Below, piece by piece: positions 10,470-23,430 of a DNA stretch of 51,736 nucleotides. Position numbers and translations under genes: made by a program. Numbering within the stretch: position 1 is the stretch's first letter; every line of letters starts with the position of its first letter. Under the pieces are notes generated by a model. The model ran no database searches and had not been told where the DNA came from. It was given only the letters and a program-made list of their open reading frames with translations. Origin of the DNA: a virus (Duplodnaviria > Caudoviricetes); IMG/VR virus record IMGVR_UViG_3300017913_000476, positions 1 to 51,736 of that record. One strand, 5' to 3'.

Positions 10470-10660
10470 GAAAAATTGCAAAAAAATTTTTGACGGCTAG
10501 GATTCCTTGGCGTTTCTGGGGTTTTTGGGGGTAACGGTCAGGGAAAGGGGTCGGCCTTTGTCACTTTTTGGGGATTATTGGTGTGTAATAGTATGTATAG
10601 TGCATGTGCGTGCGCGGCGGCACAGGGGGGGTGGGGGATGGACACCTTATAATTATATCG
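10470..10660. other. putative pac/genome-terminus region (A/T tracts and G tracts)
   Basis: Non-coding, strongly G-skewed, contains GGGGGGGTGGGGG at 10625-10637; immediately downstream of terS. Confidence 0.45.
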
Positions 10661-10728: not shown

Positions 10729-11214
10729 TTACTTTTCAAACAGTTGCACTACCGTGTCATCCTGCAATGCGTCCGCAATCGCTTGCTGGAGTTCAGTTTC
10801 AGCCTGTTTAGTGCTGATGGTCTGGGTTGTTTCCAGTTTTTCTGCCGCGAATGCATCCACGCCCTGCAATTTGCCTATCAACTCCCATGCCCTGACCCTT
10901 GCGGCTGGGCTTTCGGCTGTCTGAGCCTCTGCCAGCAGTCCATCTGTGACACGCTGGCGAAGCGAGACCCCCTGCAAGCGATGCTGTTGCACAATATCAG
11001 CGTTTAACTGGTCAATGCGCTGGGTGACGTTGAGGTTGTCCAACAATCGACATGCCTCTGCCCTGATGCTGGCTGGTTTCATCTTGTCTGTGTCATACGA
11101 AGCCCTGTATGCCGCGCTGGCATTGCCTTTACTGTCACCCTTCACATAAGCCTGACAGAATGCTTCCTGCTTTGCGGTCAGCCCGTGACCCGTTGTGTTC
11201 TTTTTACTTGCCAT
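10729..11214 (-). CDS. terS: terminase small subunit
   Basis: GLTAKQEAFCQAYV...NASAAYRASY...A.RLL HTH pattern; start set at MASKK after GAGG. Confidence 0.85.
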   Translation of the reverse strand: MASKKNTTGHGLTAKQEAFCQAYVKGDSKGNASAAYRASYDTDKMKPASIRAEACRLLDNLNVTQRIDQLNADIVQQHRLQGVSLRQRVTDGLLAEAQTAESPAARVRAWELIGKLQGVDAFAAEKLETTQTISTKQAETELQQAIADALQDDTVVQLFEK

Positions 11215-11303
11215 TGCCTCTATTCCCTTCCCCTGCATTGTATCATCCCCCTATAGGTCAGTGCGGCATTTTCCGCGCCCTTGCAGGGCTTTCACCCCTG
11301 TCT

Positions 11304-11365
11304 AAAATTTTTTTGACTTTTTTTGCATCTGCCCCTTGAAACCTGTCAAACAACTCACCATCTCA
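11304..11365 (+). promoter_or_regulatory. putative strong early sigma70-type promoter with UP-like tract
   Basis: AAAATTTTTTTGACTTTTTTTG upstream, TTGAAA at 11336-11341, weak -10 (CATCTC) at 17-nt spacing; sits at the strand switch. Confidence 0.5.
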
Positions 11366-11369
11366 GGGT

Positions 11370-12160
11370 TGAGGCCGAAGGTGGGTCTCGATTTTGTCCT
11401 ACGGGGCAACCGCTATTTGACATTGTGTATCGCGCAAGGCTTCGGCCTTCACTAGTCCGCCCTCTGGTCTGTTGGCAGTCGGTTCAGGATTGGCTTAAGG
11501 ATTGCTCTGGCAATCCACTCCCGTCCCCCGATACTCCGCATGACTGGTCAGGCGTTCTTAAAAGCGCGGCTGTTTCTCATTTGAATATTCTTTTTCGCTA
11601 GTTGGTTTCATCACCAGTTGACCCAGTGGACACTGTCCCTGTCGCCACAGATGCATTAGACCCCAGCGCGGACTAACAAACACCCGACAAGAGGTGCCGC
11701 GCCACGGGGCAGGAAAAAATCCAAGGTAAATGCTGACTAAATCGTCAGAGCCTTTCCCATCAACAGGATGCTATTGAGTACAGACACCCACAAAAAGCCC
11801 GAACTAGGGCAGGGCGTGTGATGACTGTCAGGGGCATAACCCCCTTTCAGAATTGTGTTTGCGTTGCACGGCACGGGTAATACCCCGACACAAACCAACA
11901 GAATGACCCACTCACGGGTTAGCCTTTCGAGGCTGGGCGGTGCTGACCGCCCTATTGCATCAAGTTGCCGCAGTTATCTGCCAGCAACATCAGCCAGTGA
12001 CCAGCCACCCTGATATGCCAGAGCCTATCACGCAGGGCAGTCACTGAGGAAAACAGTTTCGGCGGCAGGGTTAGTTGATGACCCTGCCACCTTGTAAGGG
12101 CAAGGTCTTCTCCCTGCCTTGTCCTTACACGGTGGACAATCCACCGCCTTGGAAACTGTC
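11370..12160 (+). ncRNA. candidate large structured non-coding RNA / structured early leader (about 800 nt)
   Basis: No credible ORF; more than 15 hairpins, two UUCG loops, long-range stems and multibranch domains (see findings). Confidence 0.55.
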
Positions 12161-12174
12161 AGAGAGGTAAGACA

Positions 12175-12468
12175 ATGACGCAAAGAACTATCAAAAACCC
12201 CGTCAATCTTGAACTTGCAACCATCATTCACGGTGCCGTGATTAAGGCGATGCAAGTCAGGAAAGACAATTTTGCGACTAACGCAACACCATACGCGCTG
12301 GCACATAGAATGGCTGGCGAACTTGGTCAGGCTCTATTCGGCCTGAACACTTGGGGCGATGATGAACTGGCTGACCAATGCCGTGAGGTTCATCGAATTG
12401 CCATGAACTTCCTTGAAACCGATATCAAATATGCCCAAAACTTCGGGCAGGAAAGAGGTGCGGCATGA
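12175..12468 (+). CDS. first early hypothetical protein
   Basis: SD GAGGT before ATG. Confidence 0.75.
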   Translation: MTQRTIKNPVNLELATIIHGAVIKAMQVRKDNFATNATPYALAHRMAGELGQALFGLNTWGDDELADQCREVHRIAMNFLETDIKYAQNFGQERGAA

Positions 12469-12653
12469 TGCTGTTAAAATCCCTGAGAGAAGGTGCGCTG
12501 GCTTGGCTGGCGTTCCTGCTTGTCCTTGAAATCGATGACATGTCTATGGTCATCACCTATGCGGCTGGGGCTGTTGGCCTCTTCTATACCGTGTCTGCCC
12601 TATATAGCCTTGAGGCTGTATTTGGTCTTCGTTCTCATAAGAGTGTGCGATAA
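12465..12653 (+). CDS. small membrane protein
   Basis: ATGA coupling, GAGG SD, two hydrophobic segments. Confidence 0.65.
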   Translation: MMLLKSLREGALAWLAFLLVLEIDDMSMVITYAAGAVGLFYTVSALYSLEAVFGLRSHKSVR

Positions 12654-12733
12654 GCCTCGCCACTCTGTGGCTTGATTATTTCTAATCAGCCATTATCTAG
12701 TCAATGTTAGTTAGTAGAAGGAATGCAATCACC

Positions 12734-13621
12734 ATGACTACAATCATCCAAAAATCTGCCGTTATCTGCCGCCTTAACATTCGTATGTGCGGCTTTGAAA
12801 AAACCGACAAGGGCGTGTCCAGCGAGGTTGCCGACAACAAGTCAGCCTCTGATGATGCTGGGCGGTACGTCAAACGCCTGTTTGCTGGTAACCCTATCCT
12901 GAAAGAAATCGCAAAGGTTCGAGGCAAGGCGCGTAACGTCAACAAAGCCCAAACCCTGCGCTATCTTGACGGGCAGGACTTGTTGCCAGTCGGTAACTTT
13001 GACCACCACAGTGAATTGATGACAGATTACAAAGACCTGTTTGACGCACTGTCTGAGGACTTCTTTGCTGAGTATGAGACGCACCGCGATGCCCAACAGG
13101 TGCGGCTGGGTGATATGTTCGATGCAAACGAATATCCGCCCGTCTCTGTTCTGCGTGGCAAGTTCCAGTTCAATATCTCTTATGAGCCTCTGTCTGACGG
13201 TAACACCTTCGACAAGATGTTCGGCAATGCTGAGATGGAACAGCAGATGATTGCTGACGCAGAAGCGCAGATGCAATCACGCATTGACGAGGCAATGCAC
13301 CAACTTTACACGCGACTGCTGAAGACGGTGGACTGCTTCAATACAGCGATGCGTAACTATCAGCCCAAAACAGCCAACAGCAAGGCACTGGGTACTTTCA
13401 AAGATAGCATCGTGGGCAACATGATTGACATCTGCGAGGTTCTGCCCCGTCTCAACCTGACAGGTGACGCTGACCTTGCCAATTACTGTGAAATGGTCAA
13501 ATCCAAACTGACCAACTACGATGCGGCTGACCTTCGCGAAGACGAAAGCCTTCGCAAAACAGCGGCTGACGAGGCACAGGCTATCCTTGACCAAATGGCA
13601 GGGTACGGGATGGCGGCATGA
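12734..13621 (+). CDS. DUF3150-like helical early protein
   Basis: Long ORF; LGDMFDANEYP...KF and LPRLNLTGD motifs seen in proteins preceding phage AAA/vWA pairs; start reassigned after AAGGA. Confidence 0.7.
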   Translation: MTTIIQKSAVICRLNIRMCGFEKTDKGVSSEVADNKSASDDAGRYVKRLFAGNPILKEIAKVRGKARNVNKAQTLRYLDGQDLLPVGNFDHHSELMTDYKDLFDALSEDFFAEYETHRDAQQVRLGDMFDANEYPPVSVLRGKFQFNISYEPLSDGNTFDKMFGNAEMEQQMIADAEAQMQSRIDEAMHQLYTRLLKTVDCFNTAMRNYQPKTANSKALGTFKDSIVGNMIDICEVLPRLNLTGDADLANYCEMVKSKLTNYDAADLREDESLRKTAADEAQAILDQMAGYGMAA

Positions 13622-13887
13622 ATGACTGCCAGTATGACCTTGAGGAGTGTATCAGGATGAAAACGCACGGCGACATCACTGAGTGGGCAACCATGCGTAA
13701 ACGCGCATGGGATGAACACAGACAAATATGCCGTAGGCAGGGGGTTCCGCCCCTGCCTTGGGAAACCTTCAAGCGTCTGGTCATGAGGCTGGACACTTTC
13801 CAAGAGATGGTGGACACGGGTGTGCTTCAAGCCAGACGCATCACCGCATCTGCCACCATCATCCCCCTTGTGTCTAACAATACTTGA
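13618..13887 (+). CDS. hypothetical protein
   Basis: ATGA-coupled. Confidence 0.6.
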   Translation: MNDCQYDLEECIRMKTHGDITEWATMRKRAWDEHRQICRRQGVPPLPWETFKRLVMRLDTFQEMVDTGVLQARRITASATIIPLVSNNT

Positions 13888-13912
13888 CATTGTGAGTTGT
13901 TAGACTTATCTA
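13872..13912 (+). promoter_or_regulatory. promoter (TTGACA-N17-TATCTA) inside an inverted repeat
   Basis: TTGACA 13884-13889; GTCTAACAA 13872-13880 / TTGTTAGAC 13897-13905 flank it. Confidence 0.6.
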
Positions 13913-13935
13913 TGTTTTGTCAGTAGGAGAAACAA

Positions 13936-14958
13936 ATGCAAAACAATGAAATGAACATCGCCACCGTGAAGCCTTCTGAGTGGAAGGACTTCATCAAAGT
14001 CTGCCTGTCGGCTGACCTTCCCACCATGACATGGGGTGCCTCTGGCATTGGCAAGTCTGACGGTCTTCGCCAGATTGCTGAAGAAGAGGGGTACACAGAT
14101 GTCATCGACATTCGACTGTCAGTGACTGACCCGACTGACCTGAAGGGCATCCCTGTCCCTGATGTTCAGGCTGGGTTTGTGCGCTGGCTTCGTGACCAGC
14201 GTCTGCCGACTGACCCAAAGGCAAAAGTGATTGTCCTGCTTGACGAGGTCAATTCAGGAACACCCATTGAACAGGCAATGGCTTATCAGTTCACCCTCGA
14301 CAAGGCTATTGGCGACTATGTCCTGCCAGAGAATTGCCGCATCGTGTGTGCTGGTAACCGTGTCTCTGACCGTGGCGTTGTCAACACCATGCCAGCCCCA
14401 CTGCGTAACCGTCTGGTTCATGTCGAGTTGGTGCCTGATGTCGATGACTGGACAACATGGGCAAGCAAGAATGATATCGTGCCTGAGTTGGTTGCGTTCA
14501 TTCGCTGGAAGCAAGACCAGTTGCACCACTTCGAGCCTGAGTTCACCGCCTTCCCGTCACCGCGTTCTATCGCGATGCTTTCCAGCATCCTGAAGAAACG
14601 CCCATCATCTTCACTCGAACATAAACTGGTCGAGGGCTGTTGTGGTCGTGGCTTCGCGATTGAGTTCACTGGGTTCCTCAAAGTGTTCCGCTCACTGCCT
14701 GATGTTCAGCGCATCAAGACTGACCCTGACAGTGTCGAGGTTCCATCTGACCCGTGTACTCTGTATGCGATGGCATCCAGCGTGGCGCGTATGGCTGACC
14801 AGTCCAACATGGACAACGTCATGAAGTACACCAAGCGTCTGGGTCGTGAGTTCCAGTTGCTGGTACTGGGTGACATCAGTGCGCGTGACACCAATCTGTG
14901 CAAGAACAAGTCCTTCATCGACATGAACTGCGACTTGAAGAAACTTGCCCAGTCATAA
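13936..14958 (+). CDS. MoxR-like AAA+ ATPase
   Basis: Walker A GASGIGKS, Walker B LLDEVN, AGNR..D, PLRNR arginine finger, PSPRS sensor. Confidence 0.9.
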   Translation: MQNNEMNIATVKPSEWKDFIKVCLSADLPTMTWGASGIGKSDGLRQIAEEEGYTDVIDIRLSVTDPTDLKGIPVPDVQAGFVRWLRDQRLPTDPKAKVIVLLDEVNSGTPIEQAMAYQFTLDKAIGDYVLPENCRIVCAGNRVSDRGVVNTMPAPLRNRLVHVELVPDVDDWTTWASKNDIVPELVAFIRWKQDQLHHFEPEFTAFPSPRSIAMLSSILKKRPSSSLEHKLVEGCCGRGFAIEFTGFLKVFRSLPDVQRIKTDPDSVEVPSDPCTLYAMASSVARMADQSNMDNVMKYTKRLGREFQLLVLGDISARDTNLCKNKSFIDMNCDLKKLAQS

Positions 14959-14967
14959 ATAAATTAT

Positions 14968-14995
14968 TGACGGGGGTGTCAACATGCCCCCGTCA
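14968..14995 (+). promoter_or_regulatory. intergenic GC hairpin followed by an extended -10-like TGTTACAAT
   Basis: TGACGGGGG...CCCCCGTCA stem; TACAAT at 15001-15006. Confidence 0.5.
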
Positions 14996-15023
14996 TCTGT
15001 TACAATCTAGTTGTGAGGTAGAA

Positions 15024-16268
15024 ATGCAAGACGATATTCAAAACATCATCGACAAGACAAAAGTCGTGACGCTTCTTCATCAGCCATTCTTTGGCACTGG
15101 TGCATCTAAACTTGAGTGGTCAATGGATAATGACATCACCAAGACTGCTTGCACAGATGGCACTTTCATCAAGTTCAATTCAGACTTTCTTCTATCCCTT
15201 GACCAGCCCAAGCGTATTGGCCTGACTGTTCATGAGGTGATGCATGTGTACGGCAAGCATCATCTGCGGCGTGGCAAGCGTGACCCCAAGTTGTGGAACA
15301 TTGCCTGTGACTATCAAATCAACCTGTGCATTCAAGATGCCATCGATGCTGAGAAGGCTAGGCGTGGCGGCGTGTCATGCATGGAGTTGCCTGAAGGTGC
15401 GTTGCTTGATGACAAGTATCGAGGTCTATCAGCAGAGGATATCTATTCCCTGCTTGAGGCAGAACAGCCACCCATCAATGTGAAGCCTACTGGTTCTGGT
15501 GATGGTGACGGTAACGATGACCAGCCATCTTCTGGCAACGACATCGGCACACCATCTGATATTGGTCAGTCATGGGGTGATGTTATCGACAGCCCTGCTG
15601 GCTCGCCATCTGAAATTGCTGATGCAGAGGCAGAGGTCGAAGTAATGGTCGAACAGGCACACAATCTTGCCAAGTCTCGCGGCAAGTCATTCGGTGCGGC
15701 AGAAGAGTTGGTCAAGTCATACAAGAAGCCAACCGTTGACTGGCGTTCAGTTATCCGCGCCATGATGCAGTCAATCAGCAAGGTGGACTATACATATCAG
15801 CGTCCGCACAAGTACGGTCATCACATCATGTCGTCTGTCGGTGCGTTCATCCCAGACTATCATCGTGAGAACGTGGGTGAGATTGTCTTAGCCATTGACA
15901 CATCAGCGTCTGTTACTTGGGACGAGGTGCAACAGTATTTGGGTGAGTGTCAGTCCATCATGGAAGAACTTCAGCCAGCCAAGGTTCACATCGTTCAGTG
16001 TGATGCCCGTGTCCAGCATGTCGATACATTCGAGATGGGTCAGCCCCTGTCTATCGACAAGGTGCATGGTCGTGGCGGTACAGATTTCCAGCCAGTGTTT
16101 GACTGGGTGGAAGAAGAGATGGACACCAAGCCAATGGCATTGGTGTACCTGACAGATGGGTATGCACCAGCACCATCTGTCCCTGACTATCCAGTGTACT
16201 GGGCAGTCACAAGCGAAGCACAGGGTCACCTGTTTGGTGAGGTTGTGTCGGTCAACATCGGTCAGTAG
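15024..16268 (+). CDS. DUF2201-type metallopeptidase + vWA domain protein
   Basis: TACTDG, HEVMH (HExxH), WNIACD; vWA MIDAS DTSAS, GRGGTDF, YLTDG; start after GAGG at 15024. Confidence 0.88.
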   Translation: MQDDIQNIIDKTKVVTLLHQPFFGTGASKLEWSMDNDITKTACTDGTFIKFNSDFLLSLDQPKRIGLTVHEVMHVYGKHHLRRGKRDPKLWNIACDYQINLCIQDAIDAEKARRGGVSCMELPEGALLDDKYRGLSAEDIYSLLEAEQPPINVKPTGSGDGDGNDDQPSSGNDIGTPSDIGQSWGDVIDSPAGSPSEIADAEAEVEVMVEQAHNLAKSRGKSFGAAEELVKSYKKPTVDWRSVIRAMMQSISKVDYTYQRPHKYGHHIMSSVGAFIPDYHRENVGEIVLAIDTSASVTWDEVQQYLGECQSIMEELQPAKVHIVQCDARVQHVDTFEMGQPLSIDKVHGRGGTDFQPVFDWVEEEMDTKPMALVYLTDGYAPAPSVPDYPVYWAVTSEAQGHLFGEVVSVNIGQ

Positions 16269-16277
16269 GCGAAGGGG

Positions 16278-16526
16278 GTGATTACCATATCCTACACCAT
16301 TGAGAAAGGCATCCCTTTTGAGGATGTCCAGTCGCATCGCAAGCCATACAAGCGTAAGTCACGCTATGATGTCTTGAACAAGATGGACAAGGGTGACAGC
16401 ATCGTTGTCTCATCTAAGCGTGAGGCTGGCCTTGCCCGTGCGTTTGCAACACGCAACGGCTTCAAGGTCAAGACTAAGCGCATCGATACGCGCAAGTATC
16501 GTGTCTGGAAATCAGACGTAGTGTAA
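16278..16526 (+). CDS. small basic protein, possible DNA-binding
   Basis: IEKGIP...SRY...M..GDS...YRVW pattern. Confidence 0.65.
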   Translation: MITISYTIEKGIPFEDVQSHRKPYKRKSRYDVLNKMDKGDSIVVSSKREAGLARAFATRNGFKVKTKRIDTRKYRVWKSDVV

Positions 16527-16587
16527 CCATACCACGGGGGCAGGGATGTCCTGCCCCCTTCCTTCAACCCCTGTCAGAGGTGACAAA

Positions 16588-17388
16588 ATGCTTACATCAA
16601 AATCAATCATATCCCTTCTTCAATCAGACAATCGAAAGGTAAGGGAGTACACGCAGTATCTGCTTCACAAACAAAGCGCAGAGGCTGGCAAAGAGTTCTT
16701 CTCTCAGTTTGGTATTGACTGGTCATACGCAGACGTATTCGAGAAGCGATACTACGACATGCCCAATATTGTTCGAGAGTTCGATAGGCAGTGGGCTTCT
16801 CTTATCGATAGCATCGATGACATTCAAACCGCTCGAAAGGAACTGCAAGAACCTGTCGAGGAGATGGGATTGCAATCCATCATTGCCAAGGCAAGACGGG
16901 CAAACAAGTGGGGTCTTGATGGTGAGTACTGGCTCAGTCAACTTGATGCAAACATTCGACCAAACCTGAGTTGGATGATGGACAGTGGTGTGCAAGACGG
17001 TAAACAATACATGCGTCTCACCGCAAACGTCACGGTTGACAGGGATACTGGTAAGATTACCAACACCCATCCCTATGAAGTAAAGACCGTGTCTCTGGAC
17101 ATCCCACTCATGTGGCACAAACATCTTTCATTGATTGGTCAGGCTGTGATTGACAACAAGATTGTCCTGTCTGTCAGGCCGCTTGGGATGTTTGGTGATG
17201 TCGAGGGCTTTGCCGCCAAGGTTGCGGTCAAGGGTCTCAAAGCATACGACTGGCGTACTGAAGATGTTTACATTGGCAAGTTCACAGACACCGTGCAGAT
17301 TTGTAAGTCCCGTATGCACATCAAATCTGTTGCCAAGCGTAAAGCATCTGCTGAATTTACGGATGAACTGCTGGCGAGTTTTGACTAA
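16588..17388 (+). CDS. hypothetical protein
   Basis: SD GAGG, preceded by hairpin GGGGCAGG-GATGT-CCTGCCCC. Confidence 0.75.
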   Translation: MLTSKSIISLLQSDNRKVREYTQYLLHKQSAEAGKEFFSQFGIDWSYADVFEKRYYDMPNIVREFDRQWASLIDSIDDIQTARKELQEPVEEMGLQSIIAKARRANKWGLDGEYWLSQLDANIRPNLSWMMDSGVQDGKQYMRLTANVTVDRDTGKITNTHPYEVKTVSLDIPLMWHKHLSLIGQAVIDNKIVLSVRPLGMFGDVEGFAAKVAVKGLKAYDWRTEDVYIGKFTDTVQICKSRMHIKSVAKRKASAEFTDELLASFD

Positions 17389-17648
17389 TGGACAAGCGCA
17401 TGCGTGACATCAGGAAACTTATCAAACGTGAGGGTCTTGATGTCCTTAACATAACCACAGGCAAACACATAAACATCACTGTCACTGACGGGTCAGTGGT
17501 GTTCAGTGTGGTAGCATCTATAACACCGTCCTGTCACAGGGCAAGTCGCAACCTACGTTCACACCTGAGGAGAGGTATCCGTGAGGCACAAGAGAAATCC
17601 AATGGCTCAACGTCTAGCCAACCCCCTCTTCAGGAAGAGGGTAGTTAA
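17388..17648 (+). CDS. HicA-like (dsRBD-fold) putative mRNA interferase
   Basis: Helix-G-strands pattern with TGKH, then SITPSCHRASRNLRSHLRR C-terminal helix; TAATG coupling. Confidence 0.55.
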   Translation: MDKRMRDIRKLIKREGLDVLNITTGKHINITVTDGSVVFSVVASITPSCHRASRNLRSHLRRGIREAQEKSNGSTSSQPPLQEEGS

Positions 17649-17745
17649 ACAACAGAAGGGGAAGGGTAGTTATGCAAGAAAAGGAAAGCATCCAAAACCT
17701 TATCGACTTTCATCAGAGGATGATGAACGAAGCCGCGATGGCTGA
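17581..17745 (+). CDS. arfA: ArfA-like alternative ribosome rescue factor, 54 aa (not in ORF track)
   Basis: Hand translation MRHKRNPMAQRLANPLFRKRVVKQQKGKGSYARKGKHPKPYRLSSEDDERSRDG; SD GAGGAGAGG before GTG; ArfA core PLFRxRVxKxxKGKGSYxRKGKH. Confidence 0.8.
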   Translation: MRHKRNPMAQRLANPLFRKRVVKQQKGKGSYARKGKHPKPYRLSSEDDERSRDG

Positions 17746-17845
17746 CAGCAAACACCTCTATGATATACATCGTGAAGCACTGGTCAAACTTCAGGATGAA
17801 TTAGACAACATTCATGACCCATTTATGGAAGGATATCCAGTATGA
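17672..17845 (+). CDS. 57-aa helical hypothetical protein (not in ORF track)
   Basis: MQEKESIQNLIDFHQRMMNEAAMADSKHLYDIHREALVKLQDELDNIHDPFMEGYPV; ATGA-coupled to the sirtuin. Confidence 0.65.
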   Translation: MQEKESIQNLIDFHQRMMNEAAMADSKHLYDIHREALVKLQDELDNIHDPFMEGYPV

Positions 17846-18516
17846 AGTATAAAAATGTAACTGTATTCACTGGGGCTGGAGTGTCAGCCGACAGTGGATT
17901 ACCCACGTTCCGTGACCCCAAGGGATTATGGGACAACCACAACCCTGACATTGTCTCGTCAGTCGGTGGCTTTGAACGTAACCGTGAGGAGTTCATGGAC
18001 TTCTGGGACACAGCCCGTGGCTATTTTCAGGGCGATAACTTCAAACCAAACAAGGCACATGAAATTCTTGCGATGTGGGAACGCTTGCAACATGAACATG
18101 GTGGCGAGTTCAATCTGATTACCACCAACGTGGACAACTTGCATGACCTTGCTGGTTCAAGTGACCCTATCAAAATCCACGGCGACATCTTGGTCAATGG
18201 TCGTGAGTATGAGTATGAAGTCGAAGGCAAGGTGTTTAGTTGGCACATGCCTGACGTTGTTCTGTTCGGTGACAGTAAGCACAGGGCAGATGATATGTGG
18301 AGAGCCGTTGCCAAGGCTGACTTGTTTGTGTGCGTTGGTTCGTCACTGTCCATCGGTGGTGACGATGCCATCATATACAATGCCAAAGACCAAGGTGCTG
18401 TCACAGTTGAGATTAATCCAAACCCAACAGGACACGCTGGCTTTGACGTTGTGATACCTAAGTCCGCAAGCGAAGGTCTTGAAGACCTGACAACCTTACT
18501 GTGGGGAAAGGGATGA
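17842..18516 (+). CDS. Sir2/CobB-family NAD-dependent deacylase
   Basis: TGAGVSADSGLPTFR, TNVDNLH..AG, IHG, PDVVLFG, VGSSL, EINP. Confidence 0.92.
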   Translation: MKYKNVTVFTGAGVSADSGLPTFRDPKGLWDNHNPDIVSSVGGFERNREEFMDFWDTARGYFQGDNFKPNKAHEILAMWERLQHEHGGEFNLITTNVDNLHDLAGSSDPIKIHGDILVNGREYEYEVEGKVFSWHMPDVVLFGDSKHRADDMWRAVAKADLFVCVGSSLSIGGDDAIIYNAKDQGAVTVEINPNPTGHAGFDVVIPKSASEGLEDLTTLLWGKG

Positions 18517-18821
18517 AAAGTAAAATGCATGAACGCTATTTAACCGCACGGCACAAATACAGGAACAAGTATGGTCGTGTAACCTCAGGTGACTTTCTTA
18601 AGAGGTGTAATGAAAATGATACGTTACTCAAAGACACAGTCGAGATTGCCTACTTACTCGGTGAGTGGCGCAGTCAGCACAGGCGCAACATCAAAAGCAG
18701 GAAGTACCAGTCGGTATACCGCGTCAAGAACCGCGACAAAGTCAGAACATACCAACGTGACTACAAGCGGAAGCTACGCGGAAGCAAGGCCTTTGTGTAT
18801 TCAATGCCAAAGCAAAGCTGA
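18513..18821 (+). CDS. basic hypothetical protein
   Basis: ATGA-coupled to the sirtuin. Confidence 0.6.
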   Translation: MKSKMHERYLTARHKYRNKYGRVTSGDFLKRCNENDTLLKDTVEIAYLLGEWRSQHRRNIKSRKYQSVYRVKNRDKVRTYQRDYKRKLRGSKAFVYSMPKQS

Positions 18822-18885
18822 TGCTGTGATTGGTGATGTGTATTATTGTGCGTACCACGCACTTAGGAAACAGAAAGGCGGGTAA
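18793..18885 (+). CDS. possible tiny Zn-finger peptide (CIQC...YYCAYH)
   Basis: C-terminal part of the 18589 ORF has CxxC...CxxH; start uncertain. Confidence 0.35.
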   Translation: MCIQCQSKADAVIGDVYYCAYHALRKQKGG

Positions 18886-18900
18886 CACCGCCTTTCTTTT
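18872..18900 (+). terminator. intrinsic terminator
   Basis: AGAAAGGCGG-GTAACA-CCGCCTTTCT followed by TTT. Confidence 0.8.
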
Positions 18901-18928
18901 ACCATTGTCTCGTCAGTAGGAGAATGTA

Positions 18929-19147
18929 ATGAGTATTTGCAAGCAATGCATGAAGCGCAAGAGTGAAATCAACTGGCGTAACTATCCATACATACGTCCT
19001 CACCTTCTCTGGGTAGATACCAAAGGTATATACCATTTCTATCCAGACTATGAGGACATTACATATTGCAGAGAGGAAGTGTTCCATGAAGCGAGTTCTG
19101 TACATCATAACTGTGGCTACATTCCTTCTGATATTCCTGTGAGGTAA
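18929..19147 (+). CDS. hypothetical protein
   Basis: SD AGGAG. Confidence 0.6.
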   Translation: MSICKQCMKRKSEINWRNYPYIRPHLLWVDTKGIYHFYPDYEDITYCREEVFHEASSVHHNCGYIPSDIPVR

Positions 19148-19149
19148 TC

Positions 19150-19980
19150 ATGAAAATAATTTCAAGGGACGATGCAATTAAGCTAGGCCTGAAGAATTAT
19201 TTTACAGGCAAGCCTTGCAAGCATGGACACATATCGGAACGACAGGTTGCCAATCATGTTTGTGTAACCTGTAGAAACAAAAGACAACGTGAACGTGCTA
19301 GACTGGTCAGGGTGTGGAGTGTCGATGGACAGCGCAGGAAACAGGCTAGACAAGCCGCAATGGAAAGCGGTGCATCCACATATTTTCACGGCATACCATG
19401 TAAGAATGGTCACGTTGCACCAAGGCAAACGTCAAACGGTGCGTGTACTGAATGCACATATCAGAGAAACAAGACTGATAAGGTTAAGCAGTACAAGAAA
19501 CAACACAAGAAAGATAACAGAGACAAGTATCTGCAACACCAAAGGAGAAGACGCGCAGAAAACTTGGAAGAAATGCGTGAGTATCATCGCAACTATTTTC
19601 AGCAAAACAAAGAACGTCTCGTTGCACAAAGCAGAAGGAGACACCTTGAGAGGTTGAAAGAAGAAGATGGATACCGCGATAAGGTAAAGGCACAAAGAAA
19701 AAAATGGCGCGTTAATAACCGTGCCTACATGTGTCAGTACTCAAGCATGAGAAGCAAGAGGGTGGCACAAGCGACACCGTCTTGGGTAAATGTTGAAAGC
19801 CTTATCCTTAAATATAAGGAAAGGGAAACTATGTCGCGGCTAACTGGCGTGACACACCACGTTGACCATCGCGTTCCCATAAAGGGTAAAAATGTATGTG
19901 GTCTTCATGTGCCGTGGAACTTAAGGGTTATCACGGCTGAACACAACCTATCAAAACATAACAAGTGGAGTAGTAAATGA
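19150..19980 (+). CDS. free-standing HNH endonuclease
   Basis: Two YF.G.PCK.GH...R......C..C repeats and C-terminal HVDHRVP...VCGLHVPWNL...N..K. Confidence 0.88.
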   Translation: MKIISRDDAIKLGLKNYFTGKPCKHGHISERQVANHVCVTCRNKRQRERARLVRVWSVDGQRRKQARQAAMESGASTYFHGIPCKNGHVAPRQTSNGACTECTYQRNKTDKVKQYKKQHKKDNRDKYLQHQRRRRAENLEEMREYHRNYFQQNKERLVAQSRRRHLERLKEEDGYRDKVKAQRKKWRVNNRAYMCQYSSMRSKRVAQATPSWVNVESLILKYKERETMSRLTGVTHHVDHRVPIKGKNVCGLHVPWNLRVITAEHNLSKHNKWSSK

Positions 19981-20366
19981 CTTATGAAGAGGTCGTAGTG
20001 CAAGTGTCAGGAAACTACCTGACTGATTTTCTTCCAGCAAACTGGAACAAAATGGAAGAGAAGGAACTTGATGAGTTCCTTGAGAGCCATTCATGGGAAC
20101 CCTTGGAATATTGGGACACCAATGATGTGTGGGAACTAATCATGAATGCGGCAGACACCGCATGGAAAATGATTAACAGACTGCACCGTGATGAGATTGC
20201 AGTGAAGTGGAATATCGATGACATCAAGTCTCGTGATAACTCGTTAACTGATGATGAATGCAGGAACGTACTTGTGTCACTGAAGTCAGACCACGATGCA
20301 ACGATTGGCATCAACTGGGATGTCATTGATGAAACCATTTACTGGGAGAAAAGAAAAAATGTCTAA
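19977..20366 (+). CDS. hypothetical protein
   Basis: Coupled; HDATIGINWDVI motif. Confidence 0.7.
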   Translation: MTYEEVVVQVSGNYLTDFLPANWNKMEEKELDEFLESHSWEPLEYWDTNDVWELIMNAADTAWKMINRLHRDEIAVKWNIDDIKSRDNSLTDDECRNVLVSLKSDHDATIGINWDVIDETIYWEKRKNV

Positions 20367-20553
20367 TGATTATCAAACTCAAGAACAGATAGATGCATGT
20401 GACTACGTCACTACCATACGATGGGGCATCGAAGAACCCTTCAAGGAAGTTACTTATGGCTTCAAAACAAAGGGTGAATATTGGGCATTCATGATGGGTG
20501 TCGAACAGTCCAACGGATGGATGGAATACGAAGAGGTTCAGGAAGATGAATAA
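20359..20553 (+). CDS. hypothetical protein
   Basis: Start at MSNDY after GGAG. Confidence 0.6.
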   Translation: MSNDYQTQEQIDACDYVTTIRWGIEEPFKEVTYGFKTKGEYWAFMMGVEQSNGWMEYEEVQEDE

Positions 20554-20689
20554 GTACAAAGTGACGTTTACTATAGAGGTGAACACTGAAGCATCAGATG
20601 AGAGTGAAGCGATGAATATTGCCCTAGACTGTGCAGATTGGGGCAATGCTGATGTTGACGTAGAGGAGTTGGACGAAGATGTTAGCTGA
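20546..20689 (+). CDS. small acidic hypothetical protein
   Basis: MNKYKVTF..EV..EA....EA pattern common in phage early regions. Confidence 0.6.
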   Translation: MNKYKVTFTIEVNTEASDESEAMNIALDCADWGNADVDVEELDEDVS

Positions 20690-21101
20690 AGCAATCGTGT
20701 GTTTAGCACTCAATGTATATCATGAAGCAAGAGACCAGCCTTTCAAAGGTCAGATTGCTGTGGCACAGGTTGTAATGAACCGTGTCCATGATGACAGATA
20801 TCCCGATGATGTTTGTTCTGTAGTAAAGCAAGGACAGACATACTCTTGGAAGCCAGACTTCCCCATTCGAGACAGGTGTCAGTTTAGTTGGTACTGTGAT
20901 GGCAAGTCAGACAAGGCGCGTGACAAGATTGCTTGGCAACAGGCAGTGATGATTGCACACGGCGTTTACTACAGTAATGTCTATGACTTGGTTGACGGTG
21001 CCACACATTATCATGCCACCTATGTCCTGCCCGACTGGGCTGAGACAAAGACCAAGGTCTCTGAGATTGGAGACCATGTGTTCTATCGTTGGGAACAGTA
21101 A
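20679..21101 (+). CDS. SleB-like cell wall hydrolase (Hydrolase_2)
   Basis: CLALNVYHEAR...AVAQVVMNRV...CQFSWYC...GATHYHA...IGDHVFY. Confidence 0.92.
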   Translation: MLAEAIVCLALNVYHEARDQPFKGQIAVAQVVMNRVHDDRYPDDVCSVVKQGQTYSWKPDFPIRDRCQFSWYCDGKSDKARDKIAWQQAVMIAHGVYYSNVYDLVDGATHYHATYVLPDWAETKTKVSEIGDHVFYRWEQ

Positions 21102-21111
21102 AGGAGAATGT

Positions 21112-21333
21112 ATGACTGACTGGTTCAGCGTAGATGAAAGAATGCCTGAGGTTGGGCAAAGGGTAGAATACTACTTCGCGCCTAGCCCAGACTTTGTAAT
21201 CCAGAGTACGGGTAAGTTCGATGGGTATTATGTAGATGAAGATGGTAACGAGTACCGTGCCATGCATATCTTTGTCGGAGACCAAGGGGGATGGCTGACT
21301 GGTGACGTTACCCACTGGAGACCAGTCGAGTAA
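21112..21333 (+). CDS. DUF551-like protein
   Basis: W.SV.ERMPE...VTHW.P; SD AAGGAG. Confidence 0.75.
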   Translation: MTDWFSVDERMPEVGQRVEYYFAPSPDFVIQSTGKFDGYYVDEDGNEYRAMHIFVGDQGGWLTGDVTHWRPVE

Positions 21334-21365
21334 AAGAAAAGGGCGACCCGTGAGCCGCCCCTTTC
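21334..21365. terminator. hairpin between convergent transcription units
   Basis: AAAAGAAAAGGGCG...CGCCCCTTT. Confidence 0.55.
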
Positions 21366-21458
21366 CCGTCAGTAGGTAGTATGGGTAATGCAAAACCCAT
21401 GCCACTAATATACTACCCGACTTCCCCCAACTCAAGCCCCACACCAAAAGCGAGTACG

Positions 21459-21953
21459 CTAAATGTATCTGGCGTACTTGCCCATTATTTTATCTAGTTC
21501 ATCCAACGCATCGCGCAACATAGACATGCCGTGCTTCCTAACATTGCCGCCGTACTTACGCTGTTGTTCCCTCATGCTTTCGTCAAACACAACTACGTTA
21601 CGCATGATTGATAGACTGTCAGCCGATGCCTTACACTTAACAAACTCTTCCACCTTACCCAAGATGATACGAGCCTCTGCTTGTTTGTTAGTAATGACAG
21701 GCTTGCCAGTGCCAACCTTCATCTTTCCAATCTGACTTACAACATGGGGAGTTGCTTGAGCCAAACTTGCTAGACTGAAATACCAGTTAGCCGCTTGGTG
21801 CTGGCTGTGGTTTATCTTTCCATCTAATATATACCTGTCAATCTGTCTTTGGTCTATGCGTCTCATGCGGGTTTTGTTTTTATCTGCCCACTCAAGGCGC
21901 ATGACCCCAGTATCTGTCTTTAATATTTTGTCTTTAGACTTCTTCGTACTCAT
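21459..21953 (-). CDS. putative late-gene regulator (DUF6456/Q-like)
   Basis: Last gene of the replication operon; G.I...Q.QAA..Y...LR.ALDEL pattern. Confidence 0.5.
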   Translation of the reverse strand: MSTKKSKDKILKTDTGVMRLEWADKNKTRMRRIDQRQIDRYILDGKINHSQHQAANWYFSLASLAQATPHVVSQIGKMKVGTGKPVITNKQAEARIILGKVEEFVKCKASADSLSIMRNVVVFDESMREQQRKYGGNVRKHGMSMLRDALDELDKIMGKYARYI

Positions 21954-23430
21954 GGAAATGCGCTGTGTCCTCATCGTATGTATATAGCACCTGACCACGC
22001 TTACCAATGATGTCCTCATATCTGGACTTGGCTATACGCGCCGCCGTAATGCTGTTGTTCCTATGCACAATCATGCCAAGGTCTGCTTTATTATACCACA
22101 TAGCAGACTGTTCGATGTCATAGAGTGTAGGTATCTCTACGTTACCGTCTTTATCCTTATTGATTTTGCGAGGGTGTGCAACAACAACCACATGTACATT
22201 GTGCTTTGCCGCGAACCTCTTAAGGTTCTTGATAAACCACCCGATGTAGATGGTCATACTTTCACCTTCGGTGTTGTGTTCCATCTCATTAAACGGGTCA
22301 ATGATAATTACATCACAGTCTTGTTGCACAACTGCCACTGACATCTTTTCAAGAAGCCAGTTGATATCCACACTGTCTTCCCAACTTGGATAGATAACCC
22401 TGAAGTGTCTGTCCAGCCAATGGCTAAACTCAGTTGCATCCTTCTCTTCCATATACTTGGCGTGAGTAGGTGAGATGCGCTTCTTATATTCCCAGAACCA
22501 CCACTTGCGTAACGCCCTGAGATGGTCAGTCTGTGGTGCTTGCTCGAATGATGCAAAGCACACACGCATGTCATGGTTCTTCACCAAGTTACACATCATG
22601 TGATTGAGGAAGGTTGACTTGCCCGATGATGGGACACCAGTCACAACGGTGAAGTCACCGCGTCTTAACTTGAAGTGATGGTCAAGCGACCCCATACCAA
22701 GATTGTAGACGGGACGCTCGTCAATATCAGGCAGTTCATCAAAAGAGTACACACCGTCAACTGGGAACCACTTCGCCCGTGCTATCGTTTCGGTTACGCC
22801 CTTCTCTCCGTATGACTTAAGCGCATCATTGAGGTCTTTGCAACCCTTGGGATACGATACGAACTTGCATCTTGTCTTGCCCAGCCTGACAGCAAGGTCT
22901 TCCCTGAGTACCTGACCGTTGGTATCTCCGTCAGTACACAGTATAATCTCTGTACAATTCTCCAGTAACCCGATGATGTCTCGCACATAAGAATACTTAT
23001 GTGATACACCGTCACGTTCTGGCTCAATGTTCTTTGAAGGCGCACCGTCAGGTACAGATATAGACCTGATGAAACCACACTGTACTGCGGCGATGCAATC
23101 CCACTCGCCCTCTGTGATAATGACTGGTAAATGGTTAATGCTTTCATCCAGAAGTACCTCTCTGTTCCAGACTACTTTCTCACCGCCCTTGTCCTGAGAC
23201 CAAGGCGGCAACCCATCGACCCCCCGATAGTTCTTGTACTTATGATTTACAACCTCGCCATCCTTGTAATAAGGCAGGGCAATAACATCAGTACCACGCT
23301 GACTTAAGCCGTAGACCCCCATTTTTAGGGCGATTTCTACGTCCAGTCCCCGTTGAATTATGTAATCCGTTGCTTCGCTGGTTAGCGGTGTCGAATCCTG
23401 AACGCCAACCGCAGTTGTGGCAGATGACAT
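21934..23430 (-). CDS. TOPRIM primase + SF4 helicase (T7 gp4/Twinkle-like) lacking its Zn-binding domain
   Basis: ITEGEWD, SVPDGA, DGDTNG, KDLND; Walker A GVPSSGKST, IIDP, VAHP. Confidence 0.92.
   Translation of the reverse strand: MSSATTAVGVQDSTPLTSEATDYIIQRGLDVEIALKMGVYGLSQRGTDVIALPYYKDGEVVNHKYKNYRGVDGLPPWSQDKGGEKVVWNREVLLDESINHLPVIITEGEWDCIAAVQCGFIRSISVPDGAPSKNIEPERDGVSHKYSYVRDIIGLLENCTEIILCTDGDTNGQVLREDLAVRLGKTRCKFVSYPKGCKDLNDALKSYGEKGVTETIARAKWFPVDGVYSFDELPDIDERPVYNLGMGSLDHHFKLRRGDFTVVTGVPSSGKSTFLNHMMCNLVKNHDMRVCFASFEQAPQTDHLRALRKWWFWEYKKRISPTHAKYMEEKDATEFSHWLDRHFRVIYPSWEDSVDINWLLEKMSVAVVQQDCDVIIIDPFNEMEHNTEGESMTIYIGWFIKNLKRFAAKHNVHVVVVAHPRKINKDKDGNVEIPTLYDIEQSAMWYNKADLGMIVHRNNSITAARIAKSRYEDIIGKRGQVLYTYDEDTAHFHEYEEV

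Follow-up and report, generated by a model that had tools for sequence, protein, structure and literature searches.

The question raised by this locus is whether a gene-free gap in the genome of a marine phage encodes a large RNA and, if so, what such an RNA would do at the head of the early region. The window analysed here is the whole stretch of 51,736 nt (a 51.7-kb virus record), which encodes a terminase, portal, capsid, GroES and primase/helicase as well as a ribonucleotide reductase, an integrase and a 2691-aa LPD38 protein; the closest named TerL proteins, those of DSL-LC04, 023Pt_psg01, HTVC027P and HTVC023P, are 51-58% identical. The gap, positions 11370-12165, separates terS on the minus strand from the first early ORF, which begins at 12175 on the plus strand (Table 1). 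A preliminary description had called this region ORF-free, and in substance it is: a 92-codon TTG ORF (11323-11601) has no PHROG match, and no reading frame is conserved, the longest open frames being differently placed among 20 copies. The start of terS is likely 11214 (the listed ORF extends to 11238), as the second Met is the start in homologues. An inverted pair of A/T-tract palindromic sites surrounds terS (10471-10494 and 11300-11323), and the site at 11300 is kept in relatives and adjoins the promoter; both are possible operator or packaging-related sites. A Sir2-family gene lies in the early region (17842-18516).

From the boxA match described below, a DUF736 gene, whose taxonomic range we take to point to such a host, and an MmgR/suhB-like RNA in two relatives, we infer that the host is an alphaproteobacterium. 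This small RNA, which has a terminator, occupies the strand opposite to terS a short way downstream of the gene (L065:2326-2394 and L068:2580-2649, both minus strand), scores 33 and 32 bits against a gathering score of 41, and was not found on that strand in six other relatives checked.

Table 1. Positions of the predicted features of the element and of its neighbours in the window
Feature	Position	Strand	Remarks
terS, terminase small subunit	10729..11214	-	phrog_51, E 7.6e-21; divergent neighbour of the element
Predicted promoter, CTTGAA-17 nt-CCATCT	11335..11363	+	RNA start predicted near 11370
Two variable 5' hairpins	11367..11409	+	second (11394-11409) directly 5' of boxA copy 1
boxA copy 1, CGCTRTTTGACATYGT	11411..11426	+	followed by phage-specific GTKYATA; 40 nt after the predicted start
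Domain I, UUCG hairpin and internal-loop rod	11436..11554	+	nearly invariant core; apical kissing loop 11505-11511
Hairpin and boxA copy 2, GGCTGTTTCTCAT	11552..11580	+	copy 2 itself at 11568-11580
Domain II, nested rod with side hairpins, built from repeated internal-loop modules	11601..11899	+	
Domain III, three hairpins, pseudoknot and stem with apical loop 12017-12023	11905..12046	+	loop predicted to pair with domain I
Domain IV, three terminal hairpins	12061..12146	+	no U-tract after them
Long-range kissing interaction (predicted)	11505-11511 with 12017-12023	+	7 bp across 510 nt
Ribosome-binding site GAGG	12164-12167	+	before the first early ORF
First early ORF	12175-12468	+	not the same ORF among relatives
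Conserved promoter-like palindrome 2	12670..12704	.	5' of DUF3150-like, ATPase and vWA genes

Conservation, folding and covariation

Searches with terS returned 13, 31, 15 and 1 loci, and 32 upstream regions were examined. An element profile made from 13 of these sequences matched all 24 upstream regions of relatives whose terS is 62-89% identical and none of the 8 of relatives whose terS is <=47% identical; the set examined excludes some duplicates and loci whose upstream DNA was short. Scanned for a motif of the element, the viral collection yielded 17 matches, all 17 on contigs of terS relatives that carry the element, and a scan with a 3' motif gave 12, all within family contigs; one further true copy (L221) was gained through the motif scans, while L204, L206, L214 and L230-L232 were rejected, being unrelated sequence or coincidental matches within coding DNA. 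Pairwise identity among the copies is 52-100%, and their length is steady at 840-957 nt (promoter included) although the genes directly after them vary between relatives. No similarity was found in cultured phages, queried with the window and one long-type copy, or in plasmids, and the core motif is absent from the 185,579 genomes scanned. The single terS match among those genomes (L080) is a contig of a phage that carries the element; it sits in an archaeon-labelled MAG, where it was likely mis-binned. Against the terL regions of DSL-LC04, HTVC027P and a relative with 47% identical terS, the domain I model reached at best 9.6 bits, which is the chance level. In that relative (L060:400-850, minus strand), a shorter, hairpin-rich, gene-free leader occupies the same position upstream of terS; it is unrelated in sequence and has no match to the domain I model of the family. 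A 14.9-kb contig of a distant terL relative (run X6) matches the element only at the 30-nt hairpin 11935-11964 and may hold a more diverged copy.

The region had also been described as densely folded. For the 791 nt as a whole this stands, with z -5.3 on the plus strand and -4.3 on the minus strand against 20 dinucleotide shuffles; by thirds (40 shuffles), z is -8.5 for 11900-12165 and -2.3 for 11595-11900, but 0.05 for 11371-11600, so that the 5' third does not bear the claim out. Of 126 windows of 200 nt taken from the rest of the genome, 10 likewise have z < -3 (12 shuffles), so that the decisive evidence is covariation and not folding energy alone. Among coding stretches, 12171-12370 (z -4.2) and 13601-13800 (z -4.9) fold better than shuffles.

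The final alignment, from which partial copies and near-duplicates were removed, comprises 19 relatives besides the window, and compensatory changes are found across these 20 aligned copies in all domains. Both sides of the pair change in 8 of 26 domain I pairs (18 sequences), in 25 of the 89 pairs of the short middle (7 copies), in 43 of the 110 pairs of the long middle (11 copies) and in 24 of the 50 pairs of the 3' part (19 sequences). In the three alignments tested, neither any of 500 shuffles nor any slid control reaches the observed number of double-change cells; for domain I, two of five shuffle measures are non-significant (134/500 and 450/500). Counted on trees, compensatory events number 14 for domain I (null maximum 5) and 26, 43 and 45 for the other alignments (null maxima 4, 6 and 9), although this null is lenient because the structures were predicted from the same alignments. 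The window alone contributes four compensatory changes on the domain II rod, 140-175 columns apart. The five hairpins and the CAGTGAC/GTCACTG stem of the preliminary description all lie where it placed them and are conserved with compensatory changes. Its long-range stem, 11453-11460 with 11668-11675, is abandoned: all 8 pairs form in the window, only 0-6 of 8 form in 21 relatives, and both arms have other conserved partners nearby. Judged by sequence comparison, the locus is thus a conserved, covarying, folded RNA element of about 800 nt on the plus strand. To the idea that the hairpins cluster by chance or that an unannotated gene is encoded here we give almost no credence; the 5' third folds no better than shuffles and other windows have similar z-scores, as such a reading would have it, but the compensatory changes in all domains surpass shuffle, slide and tree-aware controls and no frame is conserved, and covariation largely refutes it.

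The assignment to the plus strand, which had been proposed from UUCG loops and G-U pairs, is upheld by wider counts. Over the 20 copies, there are 87 C(UNCG)G motifs on the plus strand and 11 on the minus strand, where 0.57 are expected per 850 nt of genome, the counts pooling related and non-independent copies. Among 3'-domain pairs predicted on both strands, there are 19 G-U cells against 2 A-C cells on the plus strand, and the other two domains are uninformative (3 against 0 and 3 against 4). The UNCG bias together with the 3'-domain G-U excess favours an RNA of the plus strand over a DNA element.

In the predicted fold, domain II is a rod in which AGACCC..GG..GGT units of the 5' strand pair across the rod with AGACC-CCC..GGGC units of the 3' strand, and there is one full module in the window and three in long-type relatives. 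Two relatives, L032 and L034, have a near-identical domain I and different middle types, so the middle appears to have been swapped as a unit, which suggests recombination. The complementarity of the domain I apex and the downstream loop was first spotted by eye and then tested: all 7 positions are Watson-Crick in 20 of 20 copies and 3 positions covary, and none of 60 column permutations yields a 7-bp helix with two covarying pairs. Similarly, a second pseudoknot (11942-11946/11990-11994) is paired in every one of the 20 copies, with two positions covarying. A covarying contact across 510 nt implies that the element either folds as a single whole or pairs, as a unit, with other copies; intramolecular and intermolecular kissing are indistinguishable by sequence. 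It has been reported, in the available text of PMC12286853, that some covarying kissing loops in ROOL and GOLLD are bridges between chains. Two further pairings were dropped: a closing stem 12054-12060/12153-12159 is not kept in the alignment, and a pairing of 12061-12065 with 12143-12147, with a closing stem of domain IV, is unsupported in the register tested.

Predicted promoter, boxA copies and 3' end

The promoter-like sequence noted earlier upstream of the element is conserved, since CTTG/GTTG followed after 17-19 nt by CATAT/TATAT/ATTATT occurs in 21 of 21 relatives, but it was not flagged by a sigma-70 scanner. The pattern has 2 matches in the window against 0.43 expected by chance, and it presumably resembles alphaproteobacterial promoters. 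At the other end, neither a U-tract or terminator nor a conserved closing stem was found at the 3' ends of 22 copies. A ribosome-binding site adjoins the element in all copies and a start codon follows about 15-30 nt on, though the first ORF varies. Further downstream, 12100-22000 contains 17 terminator-like sites against 7.6 +/- 3.3 in shuffles, 8 of them on the plus strand with mostly poor U-tracts. The palindrome at 12670-12704, an inverted repeat with TTGAY at either end, is kept as a TTGAY...TAGTCAA-type arrangement in most relatives and has a promoter-like match on its minus strand; it is possibly a second promoter, perhaps bidirectional, or an operator.

Five RNA runs contain part of the stretch, as assembled contigs that give no level, strand or ends. 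Contigs from four of them, all of one study, cover the element together with genes and spacers on either side at similar depth, for which reason DNA carry-over is possible. The remaining run yielded a single 184-nt contig of depth 3 in the element and nothing else across 12 kb, and two RNA runs from samples of element holders gave no contig on the element.

Two copies of a boxA-like motif stand in the 5' part. For the 16-mer of copy 1, a scan of 185,579 genomes gave 120 loci, 80 of them among the matches listed, and Rfam was run on 40 of the listed loci (31 alphaproteobacteria-labelled and 9 others). In 5 of these 40 loci, the 5' end of 16S rRNA lies 209-274 nt downstream on the same strand, and 3 more have the same rrn leaders but stop at a contig edge; most alphaproteobacterial matches are in contexts other than rRNA. 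The occurrence before 16S in the 5 loci indicates that the copy 1 motif is the alphaproteobacterial rrn-leader boxA. The invariant portion in the phage family is the first 8 nt, CGCTDTTT (20 of 20 copies); the gammaproteobacterial consensus is GYTCTTTAANA in the available text of PMC5725501. NusB-NusE is described as reading an 8-nt length of boxA, of which position 5 is C in E. coli and important there (PMC3177189, as far as its accessible text goes), whereas position 5 here is A, G or T.

A hairpin precedes boxA at both copies, and at copy 1 the hairpins, which are unrelated in sequence, stop 1-2 nt short of the motif in 22 of 22 copies folded; hairpin then boxA is the rrn order and the opposite of the lambda order (PMC8632103, available portion). 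The two copies are 156-160 nt apart in 21 of 22 copies (157 in the window) and 133 nt apart in the remaining one, which has a deletion. Copy 2 has two differences from the rrn 16-mer and taken alone is not above chance, with 11 matches at 2 mismatches against 14.7 expected. In 3 of 5 records, a pattern covering both copies is matched exactly twice and both times within the element; the other 2 have no such match at zero mismatches. It has been reported that boxA is found ahead of long untranslated RNAs, namely rRNA and CRISPR (PMC13753749), and, in the accessible parts of PMC5725501 and PMC12360218, that it can also promote termination.

A proposed rRNA-style leader and competing explanations

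Taken together, these features make it likely that the phage borrows the host's rRNA transcription machinery to make and fold this RNA and to sustain early transcription. The reading that we prefer, which is plausible though somewhat short of probable, is that the element is the 5' leader of the first early transcript, loaded with Nus factors in the manner of rRNA and acting in cis. Host polymerase would initiate near 11370; NusB-NusE would bind boxA after the boxB-like hairpin, and an rRNA-type Nus antitermination complex would load, which would shield the untranslated RNA from Rho, aid its folding and carry polymerase into the early genes. The complex may also keep domain I at the exit channel until the partner loop emerges 510 nt later, much as the rrn complex holds the 5' end of rRNA. 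The compact fold would then stay on the transcript as a large element for processivity and protection in cis, comparable to put, EAR and conAn2, with the host Nus complex replacing a phage N protein in antitermination; the role assigned to the modular rod is the weakest step. According to the available text of PMC13753749 and PMC8632103, the rrn complex keeps Rho from acting on RNA that is not translated, holds the 5' end of the RNA in place and assists folding as a chaperone. With a pair of boxA copies, a short, fixed distance to the start codon and a 3' end that has no terminator, the balance tilts towards a cis leader of the antitermination type, which is preferred because there is no terminator, a ribosome-binding site always adjoins, and large cis-acting RNA antiterminators exist (PMC8191782 and PMC12360218, in their accessible portions), conAn2 being one that heads long operons (PMC8191782, likewise). 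Other points weigh against it. Since boxA alone is reported to be sufficient for the rrn complex (PMC13753749), about 750 nt of further conserved structure is left unexplained by antitermination, and the conserved early genes have a promoter-like site of their own, also conserved, about 500 nt downstream of the element, which reduces the need for read-through. The rod has no obvious role, and the poor U-tracts of most plus-strand terminator-like sites, the divergence of boxA copy 2, the variable position 5, the many alphaproteobacterial matches away from rRNA and the reported ability of boxA to promote termination count on the same side.

The excess structure is better explained by a free ornate RNA or by a protein decoy, but the missing 3' end is not. 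As a free-standing RNA like GOLLD or ROOL, the element would be transcribed rRNA-style under boxA, cut from the early transcript and act in trans, its covarying kissing loops assembling a compact monomer or an RNA-only multimer. This is possible, although we doubt it. The size of 800-900 nt, the modular rod, the conserved ends around a variable middle and two covarying pseudoknots, one spanning 510 nt, all fit, such kissing loops are interchain bridges in ROOL and GOLLD (PMC12286853, as far as the available text shows), and boxA would have a complete job in making and folding the RNA; against this stand the absence of a terminator or closing stem, the ribosome-binding site adjoining in all copies, the lack of any tRNA in the genome, whereas GOLLD and ROOL are often near tRNAs, and the lack of any Rfam similarity at E <= 1. 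A protein sponge, in which the modules and the two boxA sites withdraw a host protein (Nus factors, Rho, a nuclease or a defence sensor), is distinctly unlikely: the modules do keep sequence and pairing while their copy number varies from one to three, the middle is exchanged as a unit between L032 and L034, and the element is predicted to be the first RNA made, yet a molecule with two boxA copies and at most three modules offers few sites for a sponge, and its GGA trinucleotides are predicted to be paired. In sites of the CsrB type GGA is unpaired, unlike in the element, and type III antitoxin repeats pair within each repeat, whereas the repeats here pair across the rod; for this last reason, a CsrB-like sponge and type III antitoxin repeats were set aside. 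More improbable still is an element that works as DNA beside terS (a packaging start, injection stop or origin), with inverted repeats acting as single-stranded DNA or cruciforms, for although the locus lies directly beside terS at a border of divergent transcription and has short repeats and flanking operator-like palindromes, the UNCG strand bias and the 3'-domain G-U excess on the plus strand argue for RNA, boxA acts as RNA, and the loop-loop pairing spans 510 nt. Parts of these explanations could be combined: the first transcript might be disguised as an rRNA operon, in which a chaperone ring of host Nus factors folds an ornate RNA of 800-900 nt, copies are linked through complementary loops into a ring or cage made only of RNA, and a telescoping rod of 1-3 symmetric modules offers tunable binding sites for host protein. 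This combination is rather unlikely.

Relation to known RNAs

The preliminary description had taken the element for a large structured RNA outside the known families, and the covariation, kissing loops and UNCG loops agree with that, as does Rfam: no known family, GOLLD and ROOL included, is matched at gathering score in the window, and none at E <= 1 inside the element at nine loci. On these model searches it may be counted a new RNA family, with a 5' end like an rrn leader and a body like an ornate RNA. With GOLLD (about 800 nt) and ROOL it has in common the size class, phage origin, covarying helices, long-range kissing loops and a variable middle. It differs in having no tRNA neighbourhood or terminator, in beginning with boxA and in its telescoping rod of repeated modules; abundance and multimers are features of GOLLD and ROOL, whereas the element is known here from its sequence. 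Group I and group II introns, RNase P and tmRNA have no Rfam or ARAGORN match, and no joints are seen in the RNA-run contigs. No description of the family was found in the literature searched, and its motifs are absent from four supplementary tables of Fremin et al. 2023 (PMC10690425), although part of the element RNA may be among the 10,000 candidates of that study, of which the source is available in part.

Among RNA antiterminators, put (HK022), EAR (Bacillus) and conAn2 (Gram-positive conjugative elements) are likewise structured RNAs near the start of long operons, as the element is predicted to be one acting in cis. The element has boxA, the use of which is not described for put, EAR or conAn2 in the accessible sources, and has no conserved partner gene, whereas conAn2 has ConAn1 beside it; it has no Rfam match in the window or in the nine loci. 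Both put and EAR are far shorter than the element. The lambda-type nut site is also part of a phage early transcript with boxA, and the element is predicted to recruit host Nus factors as well, but its hairpin comes before boxA, and nut sites measure tens of bases against 800 here. The early transcript of phage T7 also carries a boxA. No fixed N-like gene is evident among the ORFs after the element, which vary (profiles searched: Pfam and PHROGs). Like the pRNA of phi29, the element lies beside a packaging gene and is predicted to be an early phage RNA whose two complementary loops could link copies hand in hand; the phage studied here has terS and terL, and its element is five times longer and has no Rfam match. 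Nus-dependent non-lambdoid coliphages have nut sites together with an N-like protein (PMC11893012, available text). If the preferred reading of a cis-acting, Nus-loaded leader is true, a phage would employ, with no N protein, the complex that serves rRNA in antitermination and folding.

To our knowledge, very few large ornate RNAs of bacteria or phages are known, and almost none has a function. The element offers handles that are missing from the GOLLD and ROOL descriptions in the sources available, namely a host rRNA boxA pair and a fixed position at the head of the early operon, as well as a kissing loop across 510 nt for which compensatory variants occur in nature, as do versions with one and with three modules; it is a good target for cryo-EM.

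The rrn leader itself (boxB-boxA-boxC, with the NusA/B/E/G-SuhB-S4 complex) likewise has a promoter-proximal hairpin and then boxA, and in several alphaproteobacterial 16S leaders the boxA is letter for letter that of copy 1. Leader and spacer of rrn likewise give two boxA copies in one long untranslated transcript; in the element, by difference, no rRNA follows, the copies are 157 nt apart and the downstream fold is unrelated, and the domain I model matches an rrn leader through boxA only (20 bits). The sequence CAGGCGGC occurs about 20 nt after boxA in the rrn leaders L088, L115, L146 and L155 and also at the start of domain IV (12061-12068 in the window) in most phage copies, which may be chance. 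In soil-type alphaproteobacterial genomes, the boxA 16-mer often stands after REP-like hairpin repeats, far from rRNA (L098, L100, L118-L120, L124, L130, L138, L142, L145, L147 and L150), hinting at a wider use of boxA or at a mobile repeat that carries it.
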